DNA from: a virus
Length of the DNA stretch: 45,531 nt
Virus record (IMG/VR): IMGVR_UViG_3300021440_000007
Location: 1 to 45,531 of that record
Direction: 5' to 3' (one strand)
In this document: one piece after another, positions 3,566-36,812 of the stretch
How the letters are laid out: each line of letters starts with the position of its first letter
Numbering within the stretch: the first letter of the stretch is position 1
Made by a program: the position numbers and the translations under genes
Notes under the pieces: model-generated
What the model saw: the letters and a program-made list of their open reading frames with translations, nothing else
What the model was told of the DNA's origin: nothing
Database searches by the model: none

Positions 3566-4876
3566 TTAGACGCTAAGGGTGCCTTCGATTCGGACGGAGT
3601 GGACCGCACCCTGGAGGGTAGCGGCAAACTTGATATCTGGGAGGATACGGTTAGCTCGGTTCTCCGTGGATACCGAGGCCACCAAGGGGGCCGTAACTGT
3701 GATGGAGCCATCCACCACAAACAGGGACGGAGGAGCTACGAACCCCTCCAACACGGAGAAGATCTCCCCGCGCATAGCATCCGTGGCCGAGTCCGTATAA
3801 GGCCACTTGTCCGCATTCGCGAGCAACCCAAAGACCCGTTCTTGAATGCGGGCTTTCAGGGCGTCCGTACCGATCACAATGTCGGTGTACCCACCGGCCG
3901 CGTTCTTACCTTCGATCGTGACGTTTAGTCCCGCGATCGTGGTGTAGAAGTTGAGGTTATGTCCCTTGAGGGTGGTCTCCTCCGTGGGGGTGAGAGTGTC
4001 CGGAGTAACCCCGGGCAAGTTCCGGAACTTCAGGGTAACCCCGCCGGGGGCCTTGGGGGCAACCGAGCCCACCAGGGAGGCCTGGGCGTACTTGCTGGCG
4101 TTCTTGGTGTAGAGGCCATGGGTTCGGGTGTATGCCGCGCTCTGTAGCGCACTGGCCAGGGTGCCCGTACCCGAACGCTCCCCGTAGTCCGAGGTCTGAT
4201 AGAAAAAATGTTTTGTCCGGGTCTCCGCCCAGGCCGCGGCTAGAGCCACGTTGGCCGGGGAGTTGGTGTCCAGGATGAAGTAGTACCAATCATCCACGAT
4301 CAACTGGAGCGCGGAGAGTTCATCATCATAGTTCGCGTCTGCCGTGGTCTCATTGACCACACAGTTTTCCAGATCGTAGAGGAAGAACACTCCGCCCGGA
4401 GTTGCTGGGGTGATCGTGATATCCGCCACGGAAGCGGAGGAGGTGATCCCGGTGTAGGCTTCGATCAAAGCCTCCACAGCCACAGCCACGGAGGTAAGAG
4501 TGGCCGCGGCCAACACGGTGTAATCCAGCGTGTTGATCGTACCATCGGGGCCTAGGAGTTTGGCTTTGATGTGTTGGCCTTCCACGTTGGACGTAATGGT
4601 CAACACGTTGGTCAAGGTGTGCGCGGCTGGCAACCGCCCCACGCGTACGGATGCGGGCCGGGGGTTCTGGCCAAAGGCACTTTGAGCCATCAAGTAGGCG
4701 GCCTCGGTTGCTACGAACCCATCCGTAAGCATTCCGGAAAGGTCCGTGTAAAGCCGGGACTTTTCTGGGAAGTGGTTGTGGTAGGCCAAGATCAACAACA
4801 AGCCGAAGCCCGCCGCGGTAGGCGTGCGTGAGTTGCTGGTGATTGTGATCGTTACGATATCTGAAATGCCGGCCAT
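3566..4876 (-). CDS. Tail sheath protein (DUF3383-like)
   Basis: 436 aa, immediately upstream of the tube gene. N-terminus DIVTITITSNSRTPTAAGFGLLLIL is typical of this sheath family. Synteny: sheath-tube-chaperone-TMP. Confidence 0.65.
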   Translation of the reverse strand: MAGISDIVTITITSNSRTPTAAGFGLLLILAYHNHFPEKSRLYTDLSGMLTDGFVATEAAYLMAQSAFGQNPRPASVRVGRLPAAHTLTNVLTITSNVEGQHIKAKLLGPDGTINTLDYTVLAAATLTSVAVAVEALIEAYTGITSSASVADITITPATPGGVFFLYDLENCVVNETTADANYDDELSALQLIVDDWYYFILDTNSPANVALAAAWAETRTKHFFYQTSDYGERSGTGTLASALQSAAYTRTHGLYTKNASKYAQASLVGSVAPKAPGGVTLKFRNLPGVTPDTLTPTEETTLKGHNLNFYTTIAGLNVTIEGKNAAGGYTDIVIGTDALKARIQERVFGLLANADKWPYTDSATDAMRGEIFSVLEGFVAPPSLFVVDGSITVTAPLVASVSTENRANRILPDIKFAATLQGAVHSVRIEGTLSV

Positions 4877-4891
4877 GGCTTAGGCTCCGGG

Positions 4892-5494
4892 TTATGGGAC
4901 TGGGAGGGGAGGGATCGTTTCGTCCATTTGCAAAGCATCCGGGAGGTTTACTCCGTCCGGGCTTTTCAAATACTCCGAAGAAACTTCTACGTGGTTGATG
5001 TAATCAGAGCTGGAAACTGTGTCCATTTCATTTTCCAGGGAGGAGAAACGGATCTCCACTTGGGAGCATCCAATCTCGCGGCCTTCCATGATGTAGTCCA
5101 CATCCAACTGGGGGCCGCAGTCCAGGTACACCGCGCGCGCAGTCCGGAGGGTGTCCCGGTTCTGGGCTCGGCCAATGCGGGTAACTAGTCGGGAGGCCAA
5201 AGCCCCAGCATCAACTCCAGGGACCTGGGTCTCCGTCTCAATCCGGACTTGTACAACCCAGGTTCTATTACCTACTTGAACGGGGATGTTTTCATCCGTC
5301 TCCGCGTTGTACTCATAGCGGGTTTCATCCACCCCGATTTGCCCCCGGGTGCGTAGCTTCAAGAAGACCCGAGGGGAGTTCTTCCACGTACCCCCTAGGT
5401 TGGTCTTTCTCCACACCACGTCCGTAGCCAGGGGAATCTCCAGGCAAGCCTGGACAACCGCGCGGGTAGCCTCCTGTATTGCGGCCCAGTCCAT
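4892..5494 (-). CDS. Putative tail terminator / tail completion protein
   Basis: 200-aa ORF just upstream of the sheath gene. Assignment is by position only. Confidence 0.35.
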   Translation of the reverse strand: MDWAAIQEATRAVVQACLEIPLATDVVWRKTNLGGTWKNSPRVFLKLRTRGQIGVDETRYEYNAETDENIPVQVGNRTWVVQVRIETETQVPGVDAGALASRLVTRIGRAQNRDTLRTARAVYLDCGPQLDVDYIMEGREIGCSQVEIRFSSLENEMDTVSSSDYINHVEVSSEYLKSPDGVNLPDALQMDETIPPLPVP

Positions 5495-14325: not shown

Positions 14326-14943
14326 TTACCTTGAGCGTTTGCGCGCCTTGCGCTGGGCCTTGCGCGCGTGTCTCCGATCGATTGCGGCCTTTCGTTCAAG
14401 CCGATCGCTCTTGGTCTTCGCGTCCCTATGCCGGAGAAAGTCCCGGCGGAGGAGCATAGCGGTACGCAAGGGGTGGAACGTAGGCACCGTGTCCAGGGTG
14501 CGGAATCCGAAGGCCACGGCCAACACTAGGGCCCCCATGGCATCGTAGGCCGCTCCGTCCTCCTCCGGGGGAGTAAGGCCTGGGTTATGTCGAGCCCAAT
14601 GATCTCGGACGATATCGATCGGGGTGTGCTCGGTAACCACCATGAGGTTTTCCAACAACGGGGGTAGATCCTTCCGAGCTACTTGGATTTGCCTCGTATT
14701 GGAAAGTGGGTAGTTGGCCGCGTTGTCCCGGGCTTCTTGATCGGCCCGTGCCATGGCTAGGATTTCGGCCTCCCGGAGAAAGGCCTCCGCATCCTCCGGA
14801 GTAGAAAAGAGGGTCTCCTCCGGCCCGTTCCCCGAAAGAAGCACTTGACCCACCAAGGCCTCCAGGTCCTTCCGGATTGCTGCGCGGTCCTCCTCTGACT
14901 GGGGATCGGGTGCCAGAAGTGTGTGCGGTTGATCGGGTTCCAT
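14326..14943 (-). CDS. Hypothetical protein with a strongly basic C-terminal tail
   Basis: 205-aa ORF with genome-typical codon usage. ATG is preceded by AAAGGAA. The C-terminus is RKAAIDRRHARKAQRKARKRSR. Lying upstream of terL, it is a possible small-terminase candidate, but this is unsupported. Confidence 0.55.
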   Translation of the reverse strand: MEPDQPHTLLAPDPQSEEDRAAIRKDLEALVGQVLLSGNGPEETLFSTPEDAEAFLREAEILAMARADQEARDNAANYPLSNTRQIQVARKDLPPLLENLMVVTEHTPIDIVRDHWARHNPGLTPPEEDGAAYDAMGALVLAVAFGFRTLDTVPTFHPLRTAMLLRRDFLRHRDAKTKSDRLERKAAIDRRHARKAQRKARKRSR

Positions 14944-15246
14944 TTTTGTACGTTCCTTTTTGGTGGTCCCATTCCCGGAGGAAATCCAGGGGGGCTGGGG
15001 CTCCAGCTACCGGCGCCGGTGTGGAGCACGTGGAGCATGCGGTAGCATCGATCCCCAAATCCGTGAAGGCCGGACACGGCTCCCCGTGGGGGCATCGGTG
15101 GCCGAACCTTTCCGCCCAAGCAACCCCGGAGAACTCCTCGGAGTCTGGGTGTGGAGCCCGGACTTTACAGAAGGGACAGACCGGCCGCCGGGCTTCCACC
15201 CGGGAGAACATGACCGATCGGGGAACGGAGCTAGGACCCCGGCCTT

Positions 15247-15528
15247 TTACTCCACGCATAGCCGCGCGTCCCTTGCTGCTTTGGTGCAAGCTTCATCCAC
15301 AAGCCTCTCCGCAAGGGTCTCCACCTCGCGCATCCGGATCGCGCTGATAGGCCGGGCCCATATGTGGCCCGCCAAGCGGACCGCTCGCAAGGCCTCATTG
15401 ATAGCCCCCTGGGTAGTCTCGGGGCCGTCCTCCAATATGAGTTCCGCTAAGGTTACGGGCCCCCCTGGCTCGGCCCCCTTGGGGTCTTTCCATCGTTTGG
15501 CCGATCCAGGGGGGAGGTCCACAGCCAT
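15247..15528 (-). CDS. Hypothetical early protein
   Basis: The ORF 15247-15636 is trimmed to the internal ATG (MAVDLPPG...) that follows GGAAGGTGG and avoids overlap with the upstream gene. Confidence 0.5.
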   Translation of the reverse strand: MAVDLPPGSAKRWKDPKGAEPGGPVTLAELILEDGPETTQGAINEALRAVRLAGHIWARPISAIRMREVETLAERLVDEACTKAARDARLCVE

Positions 15529-15565
15529 GGCCACCTTCCAGACTCGAATAGTACAACTCAAGGGG

Positions 15566-15958
15566 TTAGCTCCATTGCCCGGGGTGATCTTCGTAGTCTT
15601 GGGGGGAAAGCTCACAGATAACCCCCAAGGTGTCAAGGTCTCTACCGGGCACCCAAACCCCTGGCCCCAAAGGAGAAGGGGACACCAGCCCGTACCGCTC
15701 GGCCGCCAATATGGCCCGGCGGATTTCTTCGGGCTCCCGGTAGTACCTTTTCCCTTGGGGTAGGTTGGTATGTAGGGCCCAGAGTTCGGCCTCCGTAGCC
15801 GAATCGTTGACCAAACATTCCCGTAACCACAGGACTAACGCAGGGCCCAAGATGAAGGTGAGGAAGTAGGAGAAGCCATCCGCGGCCGATAATACCGACT
15901 CGGGGAGAGCCCCCGCTAGGATCGCCTTATATTCGGGGGTCTGTGTTGGGTGCGTCAT
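15566..15958 (-). CDS. Hypothetical protein with one hydrophobic segment
   Basis: Start MTHPTQ... is ATGA-coupled to the upstream ORF stop. Contains FSYFLTFILGPALVLWL. Confidence 0.55.
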   Translation of the reverse strand: MTHPTQTPEYKAILAGALPESVLSAADGFSYFLTFILGPALVLWLRECLVNDSATEAELWALHTNLPQGKRYYREPEEIRRAILAAERYGLVSPSPLGPGVWVPGRDLDTLGVICELSPQDYEDHPGQWS

Positions 15959-16365
15959 GGGGTGCGGTACCGGAGGATAATCCCTTCCCAGATCTCCGAC
16001 AAGCGGAAGACTTCGGGCAAGTCCATCCGAGGACACCCATCCAACTGGTAGTCCACGCGGTTACAAACCTGGATCGCGTCCCGGAGGCTTTGCCGTAGTG
16101 CTACCGGACTCCGGCTCTGTTTATCCTCCTCCGTGTCCAGGGCCCAGCTAGCCACGTTGTTGGCCCGCTCGGTAGCCCATTGCCCTAGGTAGGGGATGGC
16201 CGCTTGGCGGAGTTCCCCCGCGAGTTCCTTACGGGGGTCCCGTGGGATTGGTTGGATCTTCTGGGTGGGGGCTTCCTCCAGAGCGCGGCGGTCCAACACG
16301 GACTGTACAGCGGGATCGTTTAGGAGGATATCCCCCCACCACGAGTCCTTGGTAATGCGGCTCAT
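15955..16365 (-). CDS. Hypothetical early protein
   Basis: Start MSRITK... is ATGA-coupled to the stop of the 163-aa ORF. 136 aa. Confidence 0.55.
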   Translation of the reverse strand: MSRITKDSWWGDILLNDPAVQSVLDRRALEEAPTQKIQPIPRDPRKELAGELRQAAIPYLGQWATERANNVASWALDTEEDKQSRSPVALRQSLRDAIQVCNRVDYQLDGCPRMDLPEVFRLSEIWEGIILRYRTP

Positions 16366-16853
16366 TGTGCGCACCACTCCGCCCACTGGCCATACTCGTA
16401 ATCCAGGAGAGTATCCATTCGGGACTGGAGTTCATCATCCACAAAGTAGATCACGGGTTGACCGTCCACTACCTGGAAACAGGCTTCCGCTTTCTGCCAC
16501 CAACCGGCGGCCGTGGGCGGGGAGAAGGAGTCCACTTGATCGCAAGGCTCCACACCCTCCACAAGTTCGGGGGCCGGGCAATCCATAGCCTCCAGGGAGG
16601 TGGATTGGGCACACCCTGTGAAGAGGGCCAGGGCCGTCAAGGAGAGGACCACAAGGCCATATCCCCGGCGCTTCAACTCCGAGATCAAGAGCTTTCCCTC
16701 GGGGACTTTCTCCCAGTTACCCACACCCAAGGCGTAGGCCGCGGCCTGGGCAATGTCTGCCAACCTTTCGGGGGGTGCGTCTTCTTTCAGGGTGTCATGG
16801 TCTAGAACGGGGGTTTGGGGCTTGGTCTGTGTCTTGGTCTGTGTCTTGGTCAT
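16362..16853 (-). CDS. Hypothetical protein with an internal signal-peptide/lipobox-like segment
   Basis: 163 aa. N-terminal TKTQ repeats, then KRRGYGLVVLSLTALALFTGC (Cys81), then a Cys-containing C-domain. Confidence 0.6.
   Translation of the reverse strand: MTKTQTKTQTKPQTPVLDHDTLKEDAPPERLADIAQAAAYALGVGNWEKVPEGKLLISELKRRGYGLVVLSLTALALFTGCAQSTSLEAMDCPAPELVEGVEPCDQVDSFSPPTAAGWWQKAEACFQVVDGQPVIYFVDDELQSRMDTLLDYEYGQWAEWCAQ
16821..16851. repeat. 12-bp tandem repeat (about 2.6 copies) encoding TKTQTKTQTK
   Basis: cttggtctgtgt cttggtctgtgt cttggtc, read directly on the plus strand. Confidence 0.85.
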
Positions 16854-18599: not shown

Positions 18600-20051
18600 T
18601 CACGGGATTTCCGCGATCCAGCCGGCGGATAACATCGCGTCGTACAGTGCTTGTCCCACGATAGCTTCACCGTACGGATTCAAGTGCACATTACTATCTG
18701 AACGGTGCCACGAATACGAACCTTGCGTGTCTGTACCCACTGTGATGCGAGCGGCCATCACAGCCCACAAATCAACGTAGAGACATTCAGCACCAAGGAG
18801 CGCATCGATCGGGGCAACCGCAGCAGCCTGGAGCGCACGGATCGCGGCGGAATCCGCTTTTGGGGTGCCTACCGTATCTCCACCCGCGGTCCAGTTCAAA
18901 TAATGGTACCCGAGCACAACGAATCTTCGGGTCCCCGCTGTATATAGCGAGGTTGCAATATCCACGATGTTTTGTGTTGTCGGGTTGGCTCCTGTGTCAT
19001 TCGTACCCCCGTAGATAATCGCAACCTCCGGCACCTCGTATTTCAACAGGTTGCTCACGCGCGCTAGCATCTGCGTGGTGGTGTTTCCGCTCACGCCGTG
19101 GTTGCGTGACTGCGTCGTCTTGCCTGACGCCGTGATCAGATCGCGAAGCTGCGCAGGATAGAAATCGGGCAGCCTGCCGTCTGTCGTGTTGTACGTCAGC
19201 GAGTCACCGATCGCGGCGATCACGTAGTCAGGCGACATCGTCAGATCCGAACCTCCGATTGGGCATCCCGCAGTGTGCCACGCGAGCAACTCTGCAAGCT
19301 GCTGCGCCGTCACGGCGGTCGGCAACACAACGATTGCCTCGAAAGACATCGTCGAGAAGTTTGCCGCCGCTGCTTGGCGATTCGCGCCGATCGTCAGGTA
19401 CTCCAGGCCCGAGCCGGTCGGCACTGTGCCCGAAGCGTCTGCTGCTGTCGCGACGCCATTCTTGTGCGATCGAATGCTCGGGGTTCCACCAGCGTCAAGG
19501 CTGATCGAATACATCGATCGTGATCCATCCGTGACAGCGGCAGTGCTGACGTGAGCGATCGCGGATCCAGTAGATACGCGGCGACGGCTCGTTAGCCTCC
19601 CGGTTGTAACAGACTGGGTAGCGTCACAGAAATCCGCACTATTCGGACCAAACCATCCTCCTAGACACTCGGCAGTCGCGGGGATCGACGCACGCAACGT
19701 GCACCCGAGAAACACCAAAGTCGCGGCGCTTTGAGCGTTCGGGTATGTCCCGTGTGCGTTGATTGATTCGAGGTAGTCCGCGGAGCCATCAAAAGTGATT
19801 TTACCGCCCCCCCGCGTGGGTTTCGCACCGGACACCATTTGGGAAAATGCGGTACCCGGCCCGTTGATGTTGGAAAACGCTTGTACCGCGCCGTCCACGT
19901 TGGGTGAGGTTACCGCGTGGTGCGCGATCACTACGCCGGGCAGTTTATACAACGATGGAAGATACCGAGCCAGTACGGACGAACTACGTACAAGCGAGCG
20001 CCCTACTTGACGGCCTACTCCGCGCCCTACTTGACGGCCTACACCAGCCAT
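18600..20051 (-). CDS. LamG/ConA-like lectin domain fused to an SGNH/GDSL esterase
   Basis: 483 aa. SGNH blocks are IAAIGDSLTYN (I), HGVSGNTT (II), IYGGTNDT (III) and SDSNVHLNPYG (V). The N-half has FDGSADYL...LTIGAN..., which is LamG-like. Codon usage is visibly different from the rest of the genome. Confidence 0.7.
   Translation of the reverse strand: MAGVGRQVGRGVGRQVGRSLVRSSSVLARYLPSLYKLPGVVIAHHAVTSPNVDGAVQAFSNINGPGTAFSQMVSGAKPTRGGGKITFDGSADYLESINAHGTYPNAQSAATLVFLGCTLRASIPATAECLGGWFGPNSADFCDATQSVTTGRLTSRRRVSTGSAIAHVSTAAVTDGSRSMYSISLDAGGTPSIRSHKNGVATAADASGTVPTGSGLEYLTIGANRQAAAANFSTMSFEAIVVLPTAVTAQQLAELLAWHTAGCPIGGSDLTMSPDYVIAAIGDSLTYNTTDGRLPDFYPAQLRDLITASGKTTQSRNHGVSGNTTTQMLARVSNLLKYEVPEVAIIYGGTNDTGANPTTQNIVDIATSLYTAGTRRFVVLGYHYLNWTAGGDTVGTPKADSAAIRALQAAAVAPIDALLGAECLYVDLWAVMAARITVGTDTQGSYSWHRSDSNVHLNPYGEAIVGQALYDAMLSAGWIAEIP
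19998..20045. repeat. 24-bp tandem duplication at the 5' end of the esterase gene
   Basis: gcgccctacttgacggcctactcc / gcgccctacttgacggcctacacc, encoding (VGRQVGRG)(VGRQVGRS). Confidence 0.85.
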
Positions 20052-25112: not shown

Positions 25113-25486
25113 GCACACTCCACAAGGTATGTTTTGCGGTAGCGATCTACATCCCAGCGGTTACTATCCTAGGGTTTATGCTCCACTGGAAGGTAATCTC
25201 CGTGTGGCCTCGGGACTCGGAGAGGGACCGGGCCAGGCGGATGGCCCGTGCGGCCGGTTCTGTGTTCTTCTGGCTCCTCCCTGAAGGAGAACAACGGGCA
25301 TGGTTGGCCGCGGCCCGTCATGCCCGGTGGGGCCTGGGCCCTAACCTCATTCGATTGGCCTACTATGACCATTTGGAAACAGAGCACCCCCGGCCCCTTT
25401 GGGCTCCAGGCATTGAGAGACACTGGAACCGGCTTCATTACCGGGAGAAAGCTTTTTGGGAACGAATCACGGAGGCCTCAAAATGA
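25109..25486 (+). CDS. Small membrane protein
   Basis: 125 aa, ATGA-coupled. N-terminal TM segment VCFAVAIYIPAVTILGFML. Confidence 0.55.
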   Translation: MSTLHKVCFAVAIYIPAVTILGFMLHWKVISVWPRDSERDRARRMARAAGSVFFWLLPEGEQRAWLAAARHARWGLGPNLIRLAYYDHLETEHPRPLWAPGIERHWNRLHYREKAFWERITEASK

Positions 25487-26205
25487 CCAAGTATGTTACC
25501 CCTAAGGTTGCCCAACTCCACCGGTATCAAATGGACCGCCGGGCTCGGTTGGGCTCGGCCGAGTTCAAGACCGTGGCGGGGGTCCGCAACCCGGACGAAA
25601 AGCCTACACAACCCGGGGTGTATGAAGAGTTCATCCATGATGAATCGATCTTCCTCGATTACACCGCGTGCAAAACGTGCGGCTACTTGATGTGTGGCTG
25701 TAAGCCCAAGCTCGGAGTCCTTCGGGCCCAGCTTCTAAAGGAAGCCTCCCAGTGGATAAACGAGTCTTTGCAGTTTCCGGAGGAGGGCTTCAAAGACCAG
25801 TTGGAGGCTTACCTGGGCCTGGATTTCTCTAGGCTGGCCCTAGGACCTTCCGCCTACAGGATGGCTAGCCCAGGGTATCAAATCAAAGATCTAAAGTTGG
25901 AGGGTAAGACCTTCCTCCCCGTACTAAGCACCACCCGGGATATTGAACGCCACGTAACCCGGTGGGTAACGGACGCAATGACCCCAGGTGGGGATTATGT
26001 GGTCCAGAGCCGGGAGAGTCTGTGGCAAGCGGCTTACGCTTTGAAGGCCGAGCTACGTCAAATGTTACCCGCGGTCCTTTCCGTAGAGGTGGAGCTACCC
26101 CGCCGGGAAGACGATCTAACGTTCTTCAAGATCCTCATACGTGGCGTGGAGCTTGTTGAAATGGTGGTGTCCGTGCCCCGCACCTACTACGGTAGGGCCT
26201 TTTGA
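25483..26205 (+). CDS. Hypothetical replication-module protein
   Basis: Start MTKYV... is ATGA-coupled to the previous stop. 240 aa. Contains CKTCGYLMCGC. Confidence 0.55.
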   Translation: MTKYVTPKVAQLHRYQMDRRARLGSAEFKTVAGVRNPDEKPTQPGVYEEFIHDESIFLDYTACKTCGYLMCGCKPKLGVLRAQLLKEASQWINESLQFPEEGFKDQLEAYLGLDFSRLALGPSAYRMASPGYQIKDLKLEGKTFLPVLSTTRDIERHVTRWVTDAMTPGGDYVVQSRESLWQAAYALKAELRQMLPAVLSVEVELPRREDDLTFFKILIRGVELVEMVVSVPRTYYGRAF

Positions 26206-30178: not shown

Positions 30179-30895
30179 ATGGCCAAGACAAAGACCAAGA
30201 AGAACCGCAAGGGTAAGAAGAAGGCCGCCAAGCGGGCCGCCAAGAAGACCGGCCCGAAGAAGACCCAAGCCCTGGCCCGTGGTGGTATGTTCCAGGTGGT
30301 CAAGTTCGTGGCCAGCCGTTCCAAGGCCCAGCTCCCCGAGGTGATCAAGAAGTTTGGAGCGTGTGAATCCACCACGGACAACTGGCTCCGTAATGCCACC
30401 CTGAAGGGGCTCCTGGACCGCTACACTCCACCCCCGGGCACCTTTGCCGGTAAGCGGGGGCCGGGTAAGCTCGGCCGGCCCGCAAGTGACTACACTGTGA
30501 CGGCTAAGGGCCGCAAGGCAATCAAGGCCGGTCCTAAGTCCTCCTTCTTCGATGCGCGCAGGGTCCGGGATGATGTGCGGGCTTTGCGGGAGGAAGCGGA
30601 AGCCCAGGTGGAGAAGAAGCGCCAAGAAACCAAGGAGGCTAAGGCCACCAAGAAGACCAAGCGCGCGGAGGCTACCGAGGAGGAGACCCAGGCCAAGAAG
30701 GCCGCACGCGATCACAAGTTTGGGAAGAAGGTCCGCAAGGGCCCGAAGGCCAAGCCCGTGGTAACTCCCGCTCCGGATGCGGAGAAGCTCGCCAAACAAA
30801 AGGAAGCCAAGGCCAAGCGGGACGCGCGGTACCGTGAGAAGCTCAAGGCCCAACGTGCGGCCGGGGTGGCGGTTGCTGACGCTAAGTCCCTCTAA
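30179..30895 (+). CDS. Lysine/alanine-rich DNA-binding protein with linker-histone-like architecture (basic tail, winged-helix-like core, basic tail)
   Basis: 238 aa. N-tail MAKTKTKKNRKGKKKAAKRAAKKTGPKK. Core FQVVKFVASRSKAQLPEVIKKFGACESTTDNWLRNATLKGLLDR...YTVTAKGRKAIKAG. The C-tail is rich in K, A and E (EKKRQETKEAKATKKTKRAE...AKQKEAKAKRDARYREKLKA). Confidence 0.6.
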   Translation: MAKTKTKKNRKGKKKAAKRAAKKTGPKKTQALARGGMFQVVKFVASRSKAQLPEVIKKFGACESTTDNWLRNATLKGLLDRYTPPPGTFAGKRGPGKLGRPASDYTVTAKGRKAIKAGPKSSFFDARRVRDDVRALREEAEAQVEKKRQETKEAKATKKTKRAEATEEETQAKKAARDHKFGKKVRKGPKAKPVVTPAPDAEKLAKQKEAKAKRDARYREKLKAQRAAGVAVADAKSL

Positions 30896-31056: not shown

Positions 31057-31914
31057 ATGGGATGGTACGATCGGATCGGCAACGTCAAGGTAAACAACAA
31101 CGGACAAAGCTTGGGGATCGGAGATTATGTTCTCTTGATCTGTAAGCAGAAAGAACACCGGAGCACGGTCCCGGGGAAGGCCGGAACCTTCTTCATTACG
31201 GAGTATCAGGTCTTGCAATCGACCAACCCCGCACACCCCCAGGGATCGAAGGGGGCCCGTGTGGTGCGCTTGGATGGCCGGTTCCCAGACTCGGCCTTGG
31301 CGGACGTGAAAGCGGAGATCGCCGCCGCTTGCGGTCTGGAGCCCACGGGCCCGGAAGCGGACGCACAGATTACCCCCGCCGTGGCAGACTCGGCCACGCA
31401 TGTTACCCAACCATTCGCGGGGGTAGTGGTTATGGCCAGTGTCCACTCCAAGCCACCGGGCCCGAACTCCGCTCCGGGAGCCAAGCCGTTCAACAAGTTT
31501 ACATACCACCCAGTCCTGGAAAATGGCGTGGTCAAGCGGCTACCGGTCCCCGCGGGGATGCGGCTCTCCGATGAAGCCCAAGGCCAGGGAGGTCTCCCGA
31601 GCCACCAACCCCAAGGCTATGGAGTTCCGGCCGCCCCAGCTCCGAACGGCTACGGACCCCAAGGAGGCTGGCAACCTCCGGCCACGGCATACTTCGGGGC
31701 CACACCACAAGCTCCAGGATACGCTCCTCCGGTTGGGGCTCCTGGAGGGTACCCACAAGCTCCGGTGGCCTCACAGCCTCCGGCATTCCCTCCCATGGGT
31801 TGGGTAGCCCACCCCCAGAGCCCGATCCACTTTTGGAAGCCGGCACTAGGGGGAAGCTCCCCCGCGTTGACGGAAGCCGAACTCCGCGCAGCCATGGCGG
31901 CGGGCCGAGCTTGA
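31057..31914 (+). CDS. Hypothetical protein with a Pro/Gly/Tyr/Gln-rich low-complexity C-half
   Basis: 285 aa with GGAG 7 nt upstream. The N-domain is probably beta-rich. The C-half reads GYGVPAAPAPNGYGPQGGWQPPATAYFGATPQAPGYAPPVGAPGGYPQAPV. Confidence 0.6.
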   Translation: MGWYDRIGNVKVNNNGQSLGIGDYVLLICKQKEHRSTVPGKAGTFFITEYQVLQSTNPAHPQGSKGARVVRLDGRFPDSALADVKAEIAAACGLEPTGPEADAQITPAVADSATHVTQPFAGVVVMASVHSKPPGPNSAPGAKPFNKFTYHPVLENGVVKRLPVPAGMRLSDEAQGQGGLPSHQPQGYGVPAAPAPNGYGPQGGWQPPATAYFGATPQAPGYAPPVGAPGGYPQAPVASQPPAFPPMGWVAHPQSPIHFWKPALGGSSPALTEAELRAAMAAGRA

Positions 31915-32390: not shown

Positions 32391-34403
32391 ATGGATATCA
32401 ACTCCTTTGACACGGAAACTTTTTTGATTAGTCCCGGGTGTGGGGCCCCTCCTATGGTTACCCACCAGTGGAGGATCAACAAAGACCGGGCGGATATCAT
32501 CCACGCGAGGGACCCAGCAACCCGGAGGATAACCCAGGAACTCCTAGAGCGTACCTTCTTGAACGGCCATAACCTGGCCTTCGATATGGCGGTTCTGTGT
32601 GCGTACGATCCGGACTTCATTCCCTTGGTCTTCCGGGCCTACAATGAGAACCGGGCGGTATGTACAGCCATCCGAGAGAGGCTCCGGGACATTGCCGTGG
32701 GGGAGTTTGAAGGCCGCATCCCTGGCCAATCGGATGAAGAAGAACCCACCAAGCGCAAGTGGGGTTACTCCCTAGCGGAGGTGGCTCTCCGGAACTCGGA
32801 CGGGGCGATCATCCTGGACAAGACCGATCCTTGGAGGCTTCGGTATGGCACGCTCTACCACACTCCGCTTTCTGAGTTCCCTCCGGAAGCCCTCAACTAT
32901 GCCCTTCTAGATGCGGAGACCCAGGGGGAAGTCTTCCACCTCCAGAGCCACCGGATTGATCCGAGCTTCTTGGAAGATCAGTACCGACAGTCCCGCGCGG
33001 CCTTCTGGATTCAACTTATGCAACTGTGGGGTATCCGAACGGACCCGGTAGCGGTTGCGAAGTTCCACCAAGCCACACTGGCCGAGTATGAGAAGGATAA
33101 GCAAATCCTGATTGATAACCTCCTAGTTAGAGCCCGGAGCATCAAAGGAAAGAAAGCCGGGAGCCGGGACACCAAGTTGGCCATGGAGCACATGGTCTCC
33201 GTCATGCGTAACTTACAAGAGGATCTAATCCTCACGGAGACGGGAGAGGAACTCCGAGCCGAACGGGAGAAGGTCTTGGGCCGCCCTGTTACCCCTTGGG
33301 AAATCTGGGAGACTGAAAAGAAATACGTGAACCTATCGGAGGACGCGGTATTGGCCACGGCCGATCCGTTGCTTCTCTCCTACCAACAATACGGCTCCCT
33401 CCAGACCACACTCAGTAGGGCCGAACGGCTGTATAAAGGAACGGAGCTTCCTCTCCAAGCCCAACACCAAACTATCGTAGCCACGGGCCGGACCTCCTGC
33501 CGTATGGGGGAGGTGGAGCCCGGAGTCTCTCCTCCTAGCTGGGGCTTCCAGCTCCAAAACATTCCGACTAAGCCCGGGCTCCGAGAGTGTTTCATCCCCC
33601 GGCCGGGGCGGTTGTTTTGCTCCGTGGATTACGACGGTATGGAGCTACGCGCATGGGCCCAGGTGTGCCTATGGTCCGTGGGGTTCTCCCGCCTTGCAGA
33701 GGTTCTCAATGCTGGCCAAGACCCCCACACGGAGTTAGGGGCCTCGGTTGCTGGGATCACGAAAGCCCAGGCTTACGAGTTGATGAAGCTCGGGGATAAG
33801 ATCTTCAAGAACGAGCACAGACAAACCGCCAAGATTGGTAACTTTGGGTTTCAAGGGGGTATGGGCCCCAAAGCCTTCAGAACCCAAGCCCGGAAGGAAT
33901 ACCGGGTCAAGCTCTCCTTGGAGACCTGTAAGACTCTCCGGAGCTTGTGGCTTGAAGAGTGGCCGGAGGGGCCCGCCTACTTTGAGTGGATAAACAGTCT
34001 GTGTGGAAACGGCCTAGCTACGATCCAACACTTTCTCTCCCACCGTATCCGCGGATATATCAAGTACACGGTAACGTGTAACTCCTTCTTTCAAGGGCTA
34101 GCCGCGGACGCGGCCAAGGCCGCCGGTTGGCAACTGGCTTACGAGTGTTACGTAGATACCTCCAGCCCCCTCTACGGATGCCGGATCGTGGCGTTCATCC
34201 ATGACGAGTTCATTATAGAGGTCCCCGACCACCCCGAGCGGGCCCACCTTGCAGCCTACCGAATGCGGCAAATCATGGTGGACGTGGCCCAGAGCTGGAT
34301 ACCTCAAGTCCAGATCACGGCAAGCCCGGCGCTATCCCGCAAATGGACCAAGGGAGTAAAGACCGTCCACGATGCCCACGGCCTACTAGTCTGTGGGGAC
34401 TAG
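32391..34403 (+). CDS. polA: Family A DNA polymerase with 3'-5' exonuclease domain and no 5' nuclease domain
   Basis: 670 aa. Exo I SFDTETF, Exo II GHNLAFDM, Exo III NYALLDAE. Pol motif A VDYDGMELR, motif B RQTAKIGNFGFQGGMG, motif C FIHDEF. Confidence 0.85.
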   Translation: MDINSFDTETFLISPGCGAPPMVTHQWRINKDRADIIHARDPATRRITQELLERTFLNGHNLAFDMAVLCAYDPDFIPLVFRAYNENRAVCTAIRERLRDIAVGEFEGRIPGQSDEEEPTKRKWGYSLAEVALRNSDGAIILDKTDPWRLRYGTLYHTPLSEFPPEALNYALLDAETQGEVFHLQSHRIDPSFLEDQYRQSRAAFWIQLMQLWGIRTDPVAVAKFHQATLAEYEKDKQILIDNLLVRARSIKGKKAGSRDTKLAMEHMVSVMRNLQEDLILTETGEELRAEREKVLGRPVTPWEIWETEKKYVNLSEDAVLATADPLLLSYQQYGSLQTTLSRAERLYKGTELPLQAQHQTIVATGRTSCRMGEVEPGVSPPSWGFQLQNIPTKPGLRECFIPRPGRLFCSVDYDGMELRAWAQVCLWSVGFSRLAEVLNAGQDPHTELGASVAGITKAQAYELMKLGDKIFKNEHRQTAKIGNFGFQGGMGPKAFRTQARKEYRVKLSLETCKTLRSLWLEEWPEGPAYFEWINSLCGNGLATIQHFLSHRIRGYIKYTVTCNSFFQGLAADAAKAAGWQLAYECYVDTSSPLYGCRIVAFIHDEFIIEVPDHPERAHLAAYRMRQIMVDVAQSWIPQVQITASPALSRKWTKGVKTVHDAHGLLVCGD

Positions 34404-34409
34404 GAGAGT

Positions 34410-34916
34410 ATGCTAATCAAAGAACACGGACTGAAGATCTGTACCATAGACCCCGGGCGTAACCTCGGGTGGGCTTGTTGGTATAGCCGGGACTTGATCG
34501 CATGTGGCCTTACAAGGTCCCGGCTCAAGGAGGTGGGCGGGCTCGGACTAGCTCTAGCGGAGGGTATCCCCGTGGGAGCCGATCGGGTGTACGTGGAGCA
34601 AATGGTCCACTATCCCGGTAAGACCCGATCCAAACAACGGGAGGAGGCCCAGCCCAATGATCTGATCCAGGTCACGGCCCTTGGGGCGATCGTGGCCGGT
34701 CGCATCGACGCAAAGGAGATCCATTACCTCCCGGCTATCAAGTGGAAGGGTACTCGGCCCACGGAGGGGGTCATTGAAAAGATCGTGGACAAGACCTTAG
34801 GCGCGGAGGAAACCGCGATCTATGAAGCGGCAATGGAGGCCACCCCTCGGAGCCTCCGGCATAACATTGTGGACGCTGTAGCCATTGGGCTGTGGCTCCA
34901 TGGGAGGATGCGTTGA
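34410..34916 (+). CDS. RuvC-like Holliday junction resolvase
   Basis: 168 aa. ICTIDPGRNLGWA (Asp), VYVEQM (Glu) and HNIVDAVAIGLW (His/Asp), in RuvC order. Confidence 0.55.
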   Translation: MLIKEHGLKICTIDPGRNLGWACWYSRDLIACGLTRSRLKEVGGLGLALAEGIPVGADRVYVEQMVHYPGKTRSKQREEAQPNDLIQVTALGAIVAGRIDAKEIHYLPAIKWKGTRPTEGVIEKIVDKTLGAEETAIYEAAMEATPRSLRHNIVDAVAIGLWLHGRMR

Positions 34917-35542
34917 TGGATACCCCCGTGTGTAAACAGTGTGATGGAGTTCGTTACCTTCCTGTGAATGCTTTAGACCACCAAGCTGGGATCGTTCGGC
35001 CTTGTGAGGCTTGCAATCCCAAGGGGGAACTCCCGTGCTCTTGGACCTACACCGGCCAGAACGCCCAGAGCCCCGAACTATGCTCCATGTGCCGGGGAGC
35101 CATGAACCAACACGCGGCCCCCTTGGTTTCCGAGGAGCCAAAGCCCGCGTTTAGATCGGCTCCTTGGGCCAAGGCCCTATTGGTTTCAGAAGAACCAAAG
35201 CCCGGGGGTATTGAGATCACCAAGGAGGGGCACTTCCAACCGGCTAAGTCCTTGCTCCCCGTGGGGACAAAACACGACACAGGAAAGCCCCGCTTTGACT
35301 TGATGCCCCCGCGCGCGGAGTTGGCGGTTATCGAGGTCTTGGAGTTCGGAGCCCAGAAGTATGGTGTGGACAACTGGAGGAACGTACCCGAGGCCGAAGC
35401 CCGGTATTATTCAGCGCTCCGGCGCCACTTGAACGCATGGCGGGCCGGGGAGAAGAAAGATCCAGAATCGACCAAGACCCACTTGGCCCACGCCGCATGC
35501 TGTATTATCTTCCTCCTTGAGCTGGAACAAACCAAGGAGTAA
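34916..35542 (+). CDS. CxxC zinc-finger domain fused to a MazZ-like dATP/dGTP pyrophosphohydrolase domain
   Basis: TGATG-coupled start (MDTPVCKQCDG...). Three motifs: CKQCDG, CEACNPKG, CSMCRG. A duplicated LVSEEPKP follows. The C-domain GTKHDTGKPRFDLMPPRAELAVIEVLEFGAQKYGVDNWRNV...RHLNAWRAGEKKDPESTKTHLAHAACCIIFLLE matches my recollection of the phage dATP/dGTP diphosphohydrolase family. Confidence 0.6.
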   Translation: MDTPVCKQCDGVRYLPVNALDHQAGIVRPCEACNPKGELPCSWTYTGQNAQSPELCSMCRGAMNQHAAPLVSEEPKPAFRSAPWAKALLVSEEPKPGGIEITKEGHFQPAKSLLPVGTKHDTGKPRFDLMPPRAELAVIEVLEFGAQKYGVDNWRNVPEAEARYYSALRRHLNAWRAGEKKDPESTKTHLAHAACCIIFLLELEQTKE

Positions 35543-35547
35543 GGCCC

Positions 35548-36411
35548 GTGAAACAAGAGTATGTGGAGAAACGGTTCAACCGGAAGTCCAACCGGATGAT
35601 CGAAACCGCAGAACAGATCATCCAGAAGTACCAATCCATAGACCTCCGGCTTACCCTCCGGCAACTCTATTACCAGTTCGTAGCCCACCACGGACTCCCC
35701 AACACGGAGAAGAGTTACAAGAACCTGGGCCGGTTGATCTCGGATGCGCGGTTGGCCGGACGCATTGACTGGAACGCGATTGAAGACCGCGGCCGGGTTC
35801 CAGATAGTCCCCCGGATTGGGACTCCGCGGAGGAGGTTGTGGAGGCCGCCTTACACCAGTTCCGCCTACCCCGCCGGGCCGATCAAGACGCGTATGTGGA
35901 GCTGTGGGTGGAGAAGCAAGCTCTAGCCGGTGTGTTGGAGCCCGTAGCCCGGCGCCACCATATTACCTTGATGGTGAACAAGGGGTATTCCAGCCAAAGC
36001 GCCATGTATGAAAGTGCCCAGCGGTACCTCCGGCACAAAGATAAAACCCCCGTGCTTCTCTACCTGGGGGATCACGATCCCAGTGGGGAGGATATGGTCC
36101 GGGATATTGGAGCCCGGCTCCGGACCTTCCGGGTGGACTTCATCGAAGTAACCAAGGTGGCGCTTACCATGGCCCAGGTAAAGCAGCACAACCCACCACC
36201 CAACCCGGCTAAGCTCTCCGACTCCCGAGCCAGTAAGTACATCCGGAAGCACGGAGCTAGCTCTTGGGAGGTAGACGCATTGGACCCGGAGACCCTTGTG
36301 GCCCTGATTGAAAAGGAGATCTTGGCCCACACCCAGGTCCGCCGGTTCCTCAATGTAATCAAGGAGGAAAAGCTCCAGGTGGCCAACGTCCGAAAGGCCC
36401 TAGGCCTATGA
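35548..36411 (+). CDS. Spo11 / topoisomerase VI subunit A-like protein (5Y-CAP + Toprim only; Mini-A-type)
   Basis: 287 aa. The GTG start follows AAGGAG. Motifs LTLRQLYYQF, YVELWVEKQALAGVL and VLLYLGDHDPSGEDMV occur in Top6A order. Confidence 0.55.
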   Translation: MKQEYVEKRFNRKSNRMIETAEQIIQKYQSIDLRLTLRQLYYQFVAHHGLPNTEKSYKNLGRLISDARLAGRIDWNAIEDRGRVPDSPPDWDSAEEVVEAALHQFRLPRRADQDAYVELWVEKQALAGVLEPVARRHHITLMVNKGYSSQSAMYESAQRYLRHKDKTPVLLYLGDHDPSGEDMVRDIGARLRTFRVDFIEVTKVALTMAQVKQHNPPPNPAKLSDSRASKYIRKHGASSWEVDALDPETLVALIEKEILAHTQVRRFLNVIKEEKLQVANVRKALGL

Positions 36412-36812
36412 GACTCACGGTTATTGAGTCCCCCTATGCTGGTAAGGTGGAGGAAAACCTGGCCTATCTGGACCAAGCTATCCTCCATTGCCTCCGCCGG
36501 AATGAGTCCCCCTATGCATCCCACAAGATGCTAACCACGGCCCTAAACGATAACATCCCCGTGGAGCGCCGGTTGGGGATAGACGCGGGCTTGGCCTTCC
36601 GCCGCCACATGCATAACCGAGCTTTCTACATTGACCTTGGTTGGTCGGGAGGGATGGAGGCCGCGCTCCGGCTTTACCTCCGGGAAGGCCTAACCTTTGA
36701 ACTCCGAACCATCTACGGGGAAATGGTTTGGGAGTCTTGCCGTACCGCATTCACCCCGGGGCTCCTCGGTATGGATAGGTGCATACAACACGTCAAGGGG
36801 ATACACCTATGA
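36408..36812 (+). CDS. Hypothetical protein, possibly with a nucleoside 2-deoxyribosyltransferase-like fold (DUF4406-like)
   Basis: 134 aa, ATGA-coupled. TVIESPYAGKVEENLAYLDQA...ESPYASHKML...DNIPVERRLGIDAGL...GWSGGMEAAL resembles a pattern I recall for that family. Weak call. Confidence 0.3.
   Translation: MRLTVIESPYAGKVEENLAYLDQAILHCLRRNESPYASHKMLTTALNDNIPVERRLGIDAGLAFRRHMHNRAFYIDLGWSGGMEAALRLYLREGLTFELRTIYGEMVWESCRTAFTPGLLGMDRCIQHVKGIHL

Follow-up and report, generated by a model that had tools for sequence, protein, structure and literature searches.

Why does a phage carry a stand-alone relative of the A subunit with which type IIB topoisomerases cleave DNA, and what might this protein do without an ATPase partner? 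The question is raised by an open reading frame (ORF) at positions 35548-36411 (+) of the IMG/VR virus record IMGVR_UViG_3300021440_000007, whose 45,531 nucleotides are referred to here as the window. The ORF had earlier been read, from the letters of the DNA, as a Spo11/Topo VI-A-like protein of the Mini-A type, and this original prediction was followed up by profile searches, structure modelling and comparison of genomic neighbourhoods. Judged by its sequence, the gene is shown to encode a canonical Mini-A, having every feature of the subfamily that can be tested at this level (PMC7671362).

Family identity and conserved motifs

The homologues of the type IIB topoisomerase A subunit include a subfamily called Mini-A (Takahashi et al., NAR Genom Bioinform 2020, PMC7671362). 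As defined there, its members are stand-alone proteins of ~300 amino acids (aa) that consist of the C-terminal half of the 5Y-CAP domain plus a Toprim domain. They carry the motif R-x-x-[Y/F]-Y, a Toprim Glu with DxDxxG and a subfamily-specific xWELDAL form of the T2BI box, have no Bergerat-fold partner and are located in viruses or proviruses. The gene and its elements in the window are as follows.

35534-35539, +, Shine-Dalgarno sequence AAGGAG, 8 nucleotides (nt) before the GTG of the Mini-A gene (read from the sequence)
35548-36411, +, Mini-A gene (ORF list and translation; > 8000 homologous clusters; match to phrog_6247; AlphaFold2 (AF2) model with a predicted local distance difference test score (pLDDT) of 90.9 and a predicted template modelling score of 0.85)
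35581-35817, +, N-terminal helical, winged-helix-like region, residues 12-90 (AF2 helices 12-30, 37-48 and 54-69)
35653-35676, +, Arg plus Tyr-Tyr motif T36-L-R38-Q-L-Y41-Y42-Q43, in which Y42 is the predicted catalytic tyrosine
35884-36165, +, Toprim domain, residues 113-206 (strands 115-121, 140-143, 167-173 and 200-205, assigned by DSSP in the AF2 model)
35911-35916, +, E122-K123 (in W120-V-E122-K123), predicted Toprim metal-binding/general-base glutamate, aligned with the Toprim Glu of Top6A
36070-36087, +, D175-G180 of G174-D175-H-D177-P-S-G180, predicted Toprim DxDxxG metal site, which aligns with DGDPYG of Top6A
36193-36228, +, near-invariant family motif P216-PPNPAKLSDSR-227, which every hhalign run aligned with LPTHPLKEQD of Top6A
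36262-36282, +, S239-WEVDAL-245, Mini-A-type T2BI box (the xWELDAL signature of PMC7671362)
36337-36402, +, long C-terminal helix, residues 264-285 (AF2), of low conservation except for E274

The ORF has 287 codons, with GTG as start and TAA as stop. The GTG start is correct, because the N-termini of homologues line up with that of the window protein. Homologue lengths cluster at 285-330 aa. In the AF2 model, helices spanning residues 12-69 lead into a four-strand alpha/beta unit, and the predicted order within the Toprim domain is strand 1, E122, strand 2, strand 3, D175-x-D177 and strand 4. The C-terminal helix is a possible dimerisation or partner element of the modelled protein.

All three signatures on which the original prediction was built were found in the ORF. 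LTLRQLYYQF lies at residues 35-44, the string quoted for the Toprim glutamate, YVELWVEKQALAGVL, at residues 116-130 and that quoted for the DxD site, VLLYLGDHDPSGEDMV, at residues 169-184. The Mini-A motifs are thus R38-Q-L-Y41-Y42, E122, D175-H-D177-P-S-G180 and S239-WEVDAL-245. A viral location is evident from the terminase, portal, major capsid, sheath-type DUF3383 and baseplate hub genes in the window. The window protein agrees with published Mini-A proteins in length, truncated 5Y-CAP domain, motifs, lack of a Bergerat-fold partner and viral origin, and shows no substantive difference from them, its box reading WEVDAL versus WELDAL.

Conservation was measured in 276 distinct homologous sequences, made up of 120 from the protein database and the copies in 160 fetched loci. 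R38 was present in 275 and Y42 in 274, while position 41 was Y or F in 274. E122, K123, D175, D177, P178, S179 and G180 were found in all 276. In the T2BI box W240 and E241 (275 each) and D243 (274) were nearly as constant, and position 242 was V in 166 and L in 108. Altogether ~50 residues are invariant across Mini-A homologues. Because the quoted motifs are near-invariant, they are real and strongly constrained rather than chance matches, and the expectation that the Tyr, Glu and DxD positions would be conserved was borne out.

Identity between Mini-A proteins is 40-60% from phages of Proteobacteria to Nitrososphaerota and Streptomyces. Three members are interrupted within invariant motifs. 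An intein with Hint, LAGLIDADG and splicing domains (P0246) lies at the equivalent of W120/V121 (nt ~35908), just before the Toprim Glu, with junctions ...LW/C...HN/CEK. Another, with a LAGLIDADG domain (P0253), lies at the equivalent of L223/S224 (nt ~36217) inside PPPNPAKxTDSR, with junctions ...PAKL/A...HN/SDS. The third (P0243) is an insertion of ~237 aa at the equivalent of Y147/S148 (nt ~35989) in GYSSQS; it starts CVAPETL, has no Pfam match and is a probable mini-intein. The identity across phyla and archaea, together with inteins in three invariant motifs, suggests that Mini-A is important to its carriers; inteins placed in this way are typical of proteins on which carriers depend.

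Homology to proteins already annotated as Mini-A or topoisomerase completes the assignment to this class, which stands as originally proposed. The PHROGs family phrog_6247, 'DNA topoisomerase', matches the window protein over its full length (E = 1.4e-87). By tblastn, homologues occur in 84 GenBank phage records, several of them annotated 'DNA topoisomerase' or 'DNA topoisomerase VI', and include those of Pseudomonas NP1 and JG012, Salmonella SPN19, Xylella Salvo, Listeria LWP01 and Pseudanabaena Pam3. Matches in Listeria, Pseudomonas and Salmonella phages, genera named in PMC7671362, have E values of ~1e-57 to 1e-62. The gene of an Asgard-archaeal element annotated 'Topo Mini-A/DNA topoisomerase VI' (LC711082.1) was matched at E = 2e-24.

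The family comprises 12,272 cluster representatives at 50% identity (E ≤ 1e-3). Of the uncharacterised families in bacterial and archaeal viruses whose members are putative DNA-cleaving enzymes, it is one of the largest. The idea that the window holds a new player in phage biology has therefore to be given up: the family was published in 2019/2020, is cited in reviews, is represented in PHROGs as phrog_6247 and has some 12,000 such representatives. The window copy, a clean and typical representative, brings no new principle, and many cultured phages carry a Mini-A gene too.

Relationship to Top6A and Spo11

The order of catalytic elements in Mini-A is common to Top6A (1D3Y, 2Q2E, 2ZBK and 9O0G) and Spo11 (8URQ). 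The relationship is too distant for direct searches: the window protein had no match in Pfam, NCBIfam or PADLOC, and none among PDB sequences by phmmer or two profile searches. It was also not above threshold in a test with the curated models PF04406 (TP6A_N) and PF21180 (Toprim). Ten divergent Mini-A members tried as bridges gave no Pfam match to Top6A.

Profiles were compared with a Top6A set consisting of 1D3Y, 2Q2E and 2ZBK from PDB and 120 sequences from the protein database. With shallow profiles, hhalign found Tyr, Glu and DxD co-linear but the matches were weak (P = 0.04 and 0.011). When a Mini-A hidden Markov model was run against real Top6A sequences and shuffled decoys, the distribution was shifted, yet no real sequence beat the best decoy. 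To diversify the profile, 150 cluster representatives were added, together with ten divergent members taken from viruses of archaea, plasmids of haloarchaea and Streptomyces, and phages of Bacteroidota. Against Top6A this profile scored 35.4 in hhalign (P = 3.2e-4). A null distribution from 150 column-shuffled Top6A profiles gave 14.9 ± 2.6 with a maximum of 24.6, none of the 150 reaching 35.4 (z = 7.9), and the reversed profile scored 14.9.

The extended alignment pairs TLRQLYY with TLREAYY of M. jannaschii Top6A, which contains the catalytic Y103. It also pairs WVEK with AIET, GDHDPSG with TDGDPYG and PPPNPAK-SD with LPTHPLKEQD, so a P-x-x-P-x-K..D segment downstream of DxD is found in both families. 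Residues 12-90, likewise paired in this alignment, are predicted to correspond to the C-terminal half of 5Y-CAP in Top6A. A Top6A model made by the same procedure shows the same order of elements (strand 1-Glu, strand 3-DxD and a short strand at the T2BI box).

A permissive-threshold Pfam scan of 68 diverse Mini-A members gave recurrent sub-threshold matches confined to related CAP and Toprim families of the Top6A/JetD type. These were DUF2399 (10 members), TP6A_N (8), Toprim_2 (3), TOP6A-Spo11_Toprim (2, best E = 0.0013) and JetD_C (2). Taken at the level of profiles, the data support distant homology of Mini-A to Top6A across the CAP and Toprim domains, with the counterparts of the catalytic residues aligned. 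On the published alignment, E241 is a candidate counterpart of E342, the Glu of the clasp and acidic tetrad in Top6A.

The differences are equally plain. As had been noticed from its length, Mini-A is shorter than Top6A and Spo11, by ~80-100 residues, and it has neither the N-terminal part of CAP that binds Top6B nor a B subunit. GYSSQS, PPPNPAKxTDSR and WExDAL are invariant motifs of its own compared with Top6A. Topo VIII, which is plasmid-borne with B and A moieties fused or split, resembles Mini-A in being encoded by mobile elements and in having an A moiety without N-terminal CAP. It has, however, a GHKL ATPase, a transducer and an RVELNAM box in place of WELDAL, and Mini-A is defined as a monophyletic clade apart from Topo VI and Topo VIII in a joint phylogeny (PMC7671362).

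Partners, proposed activity and rival explanations

No GHKL/Bergerat ATPase partner had been seen in the genome from the sequence, and none was found by the later searches. Pfam detected no GHKL/HATPase domain in the 30 largest ORFs of the 45.5-kb genome and a motif scan was negative. A phmmer search of 13,112 ORFs, drawn from the window and 160 loci, with PDB-verified Top6B as query and all HMMER filters switched off returned no match better than E = 0.29. Ten long Mini-A members were also inspected, and in none was a GHKL ATPase fused to Mini-A. The Top6A-type N-terminal CAP segment is absent as well, the window protein beginning ~25 residues before the Tyr helix.

The ORF at E = 0.29 lies at 14626-16530 (-) in locus L093, ~4 kb from the Mini-A copy on a Nitrosopumilaceae chromosome. 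It encodes 634 aa and is the sole one of the 13,112 with Bergerat N, G1 and G2 motifs in order. It is an isolated, weak case and possibly an unrelated GHKL protein.

The search for a conserved neighbour was also negative. All-versus-all clustering of the ORFs around 161 Mini-A copies revealed no neighbour family in more than 16 loci. When 17 window proteins, including PolA, the diphosphohydrolase and DUF7768, were used as phmmer queries, none had homologues close to Mini-A in more than 5 of the 160 loci; the neighbour genes stressed in the original prediction are thus not conserved as partners. A Pfam tally of 149 large genes nearby was mixed (integrase 4, UvrD 3, ParB 3, RecT 2, RadC 2 and SNF2 2). 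The Mini-A gene is a self-contained module in regions of DNA metabolism, without a fixed partner.

Four clusters (1-3 and 10) that looked like conserved neighbours were rejected as shadow ORFs overlapping the Mini-A gene. In the window, antisense ORFs at 35923-36330 (-) and 36072-36524 (-) lie inside the gene, and counterparts occur in 81-110 of the 161 loci. They are not genes but a product of sense-frame conservation in GC-rich DNA, and they could mislead neighbourhood analyses.

The reading that we favour, and regard as moderately likely, is that Mini-A would carry out partner-free, Top6A/Spo11-like cleavage of DNA in the replication or recombination phase of the phage. Counterparts of the full set of residues used in DNA cleavage by Top6A and Spo11 are present and nearly invariant in Mini-A. 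By analogy with these enzymes, two copies would assemble on duplex DNA and form hybrid active sites. E122, D175 and D177 would hold Mg2+ and activate the scissile phosphate, and Y42 would attack the phosphodiester, leaving a 5'-phosphotyrosyl-linked nick or staggered double-strand break that is resealable in principle. No ATPase subunit would be required, and a single gene would supply the complete function, not one component of a two-gene enzyme. There is a precedent in mouse SPO11, which by itself cleaves DNA as a dimer, without a B subunit, and remains 5'-linked (PMC11922746).

Cleavage might also be restrained. In Top6A, the tyrosine is restrained by a clasp between R102 and E342, the Glu of the T2BI box; the E342Q variant hyper-cleaves, and an acidic tetrad has been described (PMC13040014). 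R38 and E241 probably form a Top6A-like clasp, so that cutting would be conditional on DNA shape or assembly. As both clasp candidates are kept in Mini-A, restrained cleavage and a hyperactive E241Q are predicted. The purpose could be relief of topological stress, provision of recombinogenic or priming ends, or end formation, and support of replication or recombination is the default reading of the role. If partner-free DNA cutting by an A subunit were shown, together with its purpose, this would bear both on how phages replicate and on how the machinery for meiotic breaks arose. Mini-A may also be similar to a partner-free ancestor that gave rise to Topo VI and Spo11.

Several points weigh against partner-free cleavage. 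Top6A from archaea is not known to cleave DNA by itself, in the absence of Top6B and ATP, and the independence of Mini-A from a B subunit would be an extrapolation from SPO11. Genomic context yields no specific clue to biological role. As had been stated in the original prediction, activity and role have remained without experimental characterisation for any Mini-A in the searchable literature up to mid-2026. The extended hhalign alignment put WEVDAL elsewhere than RAEQQ of Top6A. Confirmation of the Top6A relationship had been looked for from Pfam and Foldseek, and both failed. Foldseek of the model (pLDDT 91) against PDB found no Top6A or Spo11 but generic Rossmann-like matches only (E ≥ 0.04), and against BFVD nothing useful beyond faint Toprim primases. 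A control search from a Top6A model found Top6A and Spo11 at E ~1e-9, gyrase, topo IV and topo II at E = 0.1-0.6, and did not list JetD. Since the reach of the control ends at Spo11, the negative result reflects a limit of the method and is not evidence for another fold. Since Foldseek retrieves Spo11 and not Mini-A, Mini-A is further from Top6A than Spo11 is. Finally, the possibility of a holoenzyme partner was left open by Takahashi et al. (PMC7671362).

Such a partner, a non-GHKL protein of phage or host ('Mini-B') needed to cut or pass strands, would make Mini-A half of a holoenzyme that works as a true topoisomerase. ORFs without annotation are available nearby (25456-26205, 30179-30895 and 31057-31914), and the long C-terminal helix could serve as a docking element. 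The idea is nonetheless unlikely, as neighbours are not conserved across the 160 loci, the unannotated window ORFs have no homologues beside other Mini-A genes, and the protein lacks the N-terminal part of CAP to which Top6B binds (PMC7671362; protein length). Conservation across domains of life also argues against a host-specific partner. Alternatively, Mini-A might act as a replication initiator that nicks a specific origin, stays 5'-linked and primes rolling-circle or strand-displacement synthesis like an HUH Rep. This role was proposed for Asgard skuldviruses, in which Mini-A is the sole replication-like gene (Medvedeva et al., bioRxiv 10.1101/2021.07.29.453957), and was repeated in 2026. 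The location of the window copy within a replication module and a 5'-phosphotyrosyl chemistry would both suit an initiator. In contrast, this phage and most carriers already have a primase-helicase, helicases and PolA. An initiator should also co-evolve with its replicon, whereas Mini-A proteins from unrelated phages, archaea and plasmids share 40-60% identity and the position of the gene varies. Initiation has the best claim among the alternatives but is still improbable.

The lack of conserved neighbours and the variable position in a syntenic backbone are also what might be expected of a selfish, homing-type endonuclease, encoded by a mobile gene standing on its own, that would cut cognate sites in genomes without the gene and let it spread through repair. 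The very wide host range and the finding that 61% of Streptomyces plasmid copies are partial point the same way. However, ~50 invariant residues and 40-60% cross-domain identity are atypical for fast-decaying homing genes, Mini-A itself hosts LAGLIDADG inteins, which typically target genes that carriers need, and no flanking repeat or target-site signature was seen, making this explanation very unlikely. Lowest in probability, and highly doubtful, is a hydrolytic Toprim nuclease of the JetD/MksG type, directed against host or competitor DNA or countering a defence system, in which the tyrosine would be purely structural. JetD/MksG and DUF2399 nucleases have, like Mini-A, a CAP-like plus Toprim architecture related to Top6A. 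They are listed among Top6 homologues (PMC13040014), and DUF2399 and JetD_C, Toprim domains of Wadjet-type nucleases, were taken together the most frequent sub-threshold Pfam matches. Against this, these models stayed below threshold, PADLOC gave no match, no SMC-like partner genes or JetABC neighbours were found nearby, and R-x-x-Y-Y is near-invariant in Mini-A, which fits catalysis through tyrosine.

A more specific idea can be put forward, although it is an unlikely one. Mini-A could be a self-sufficient Spo11-like enzyme making protein-capped ends, with which mobile replicons create or maintain ends. Examples would be the start of recombination-dependent phage replication and the servicing of linear replicon termini. 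The idea stems from a single contextual hint, the enrichment of divergent but catalytically intact Streptomyces Mini-A genes within ~5-30 kb of the ends of linear plasmids.

Host phage, distribution and variants

The window is the genome of an E217/Pam3-like myophage. In addition to terminase, portal, capsid and sheath-type DUF3383, Pfam identified a baseplate hub of E217 type, a Pam3-type cement protein and an amidase among its structural genes. The replication genes are those for a DUF5906 primase-helicase, a PD-(D/E)XK exonuclease, a DEAD-box helicase, PolA, a dATP/dGTP diphosphohydrolase-like protein and DUF7768. Those closest to Mini-A are listed here.

32391-34403, +, PolA (Pfam)
34892-35542, +, dATP/dGTP diphosphohydrolase-like protein (PF18909, MazZ-type) with a Cys-rich N-terminal extension, flanking Mini-A
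36408-36812, +, DUF7768/nucleoside 2-deoxyribosyltransferase-like protein, flanking Mini-A

Joint expression of Mini-A with PolA, RuvC-like and dNTPase genes had been proposed. Co-directional, tight packing with PolA and the dNTPase-like gene was confirmed, while the RuvC-like label was not verified. The ORF that bore this label (34410-34916, +) has no Pfam, PHROG or PDB match; the label came from resemblance in a D/E motif alone, and homologues of the ORF are absent near other Mini-A genes. The identity of the two flanking genes suggests functions in the nucleotide pool or base modification. No PurZ-like gene was seen among the window ORFs scanned. In a 170-kb phage contig (L165), genes for PF18909, ThyX and dCMP deaminase occur near Mini-A.

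The closest related phage (L163) has a syntenic backbone, with identities of 69% for the primase, 49% for the PD-(D/E)XK protein, 66% for the helicase and 70% for PolA. Its Mini-A gene (4322-5182, 67% identical) is located between primase and PD-(D/E)XK nuclease, whereas the window copy is downstream of PolA. This difference in position shows that the gene has relocated within one phage lineage.

One of the window's late genes, at 18600-20051 (-), codes for a protein of 483 aa whose C-terminal domain is a GDSL lipase/acylhydrolase. The protein may be an esterase of the tail that attacks a polymer on the host surface.

A divergent Mini-A subfamily is present on 44 Streptomyces plasmids, with 25-33% identity to the window protein and intact catalytic residues. 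The three plasmids inspected, L002 (CP109415.1), L166 (NZ_CP107846.1) and L167 (NZ_CP109398.1), are all linear. The gene lies at a median of 15.7 kb from the nearer end of the record, with 31 of the 44 copies within 30 kb. Compared with a uniform distribution, the proximity to ends gives a Kolmogorov-Smirnov P of 4e-8, for records that are not independent. On plasmids of at least 200 kb, 13 of 24 copies lie within 30 kb of an end (~17% expected). Gene fragments make up 61% of the Mini-A matches on Streptomyces plasmids. Neighbouring genes encode TtrA-like 'helicase associated domain' proteins, DUF932 and a DnaN-like clamp. No literature on Mini-A near the ends of linear Streptomyces plasmids was found, and the enrichment appears to be unreported.

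Variation in domain architecture was seen in a 457-aa member (P0276), in which an N-terminal DUF1643 domain is fused to a full Mini-A. In addition, haloarchaeal plasmids encode proteins of ~500-540 aa (L001 3383-4870, L173 871-2370, L174 1045-2625 and L175 934-2556), the middle part of which weakly matches the Mini-A Toprim domain (E 1e-3 to 0.7). Their C-terminal extension resembles a coiled coil, and two are encoded directly downstream of an MCM gene. These proteins may be a longer Mini-A-related variant.

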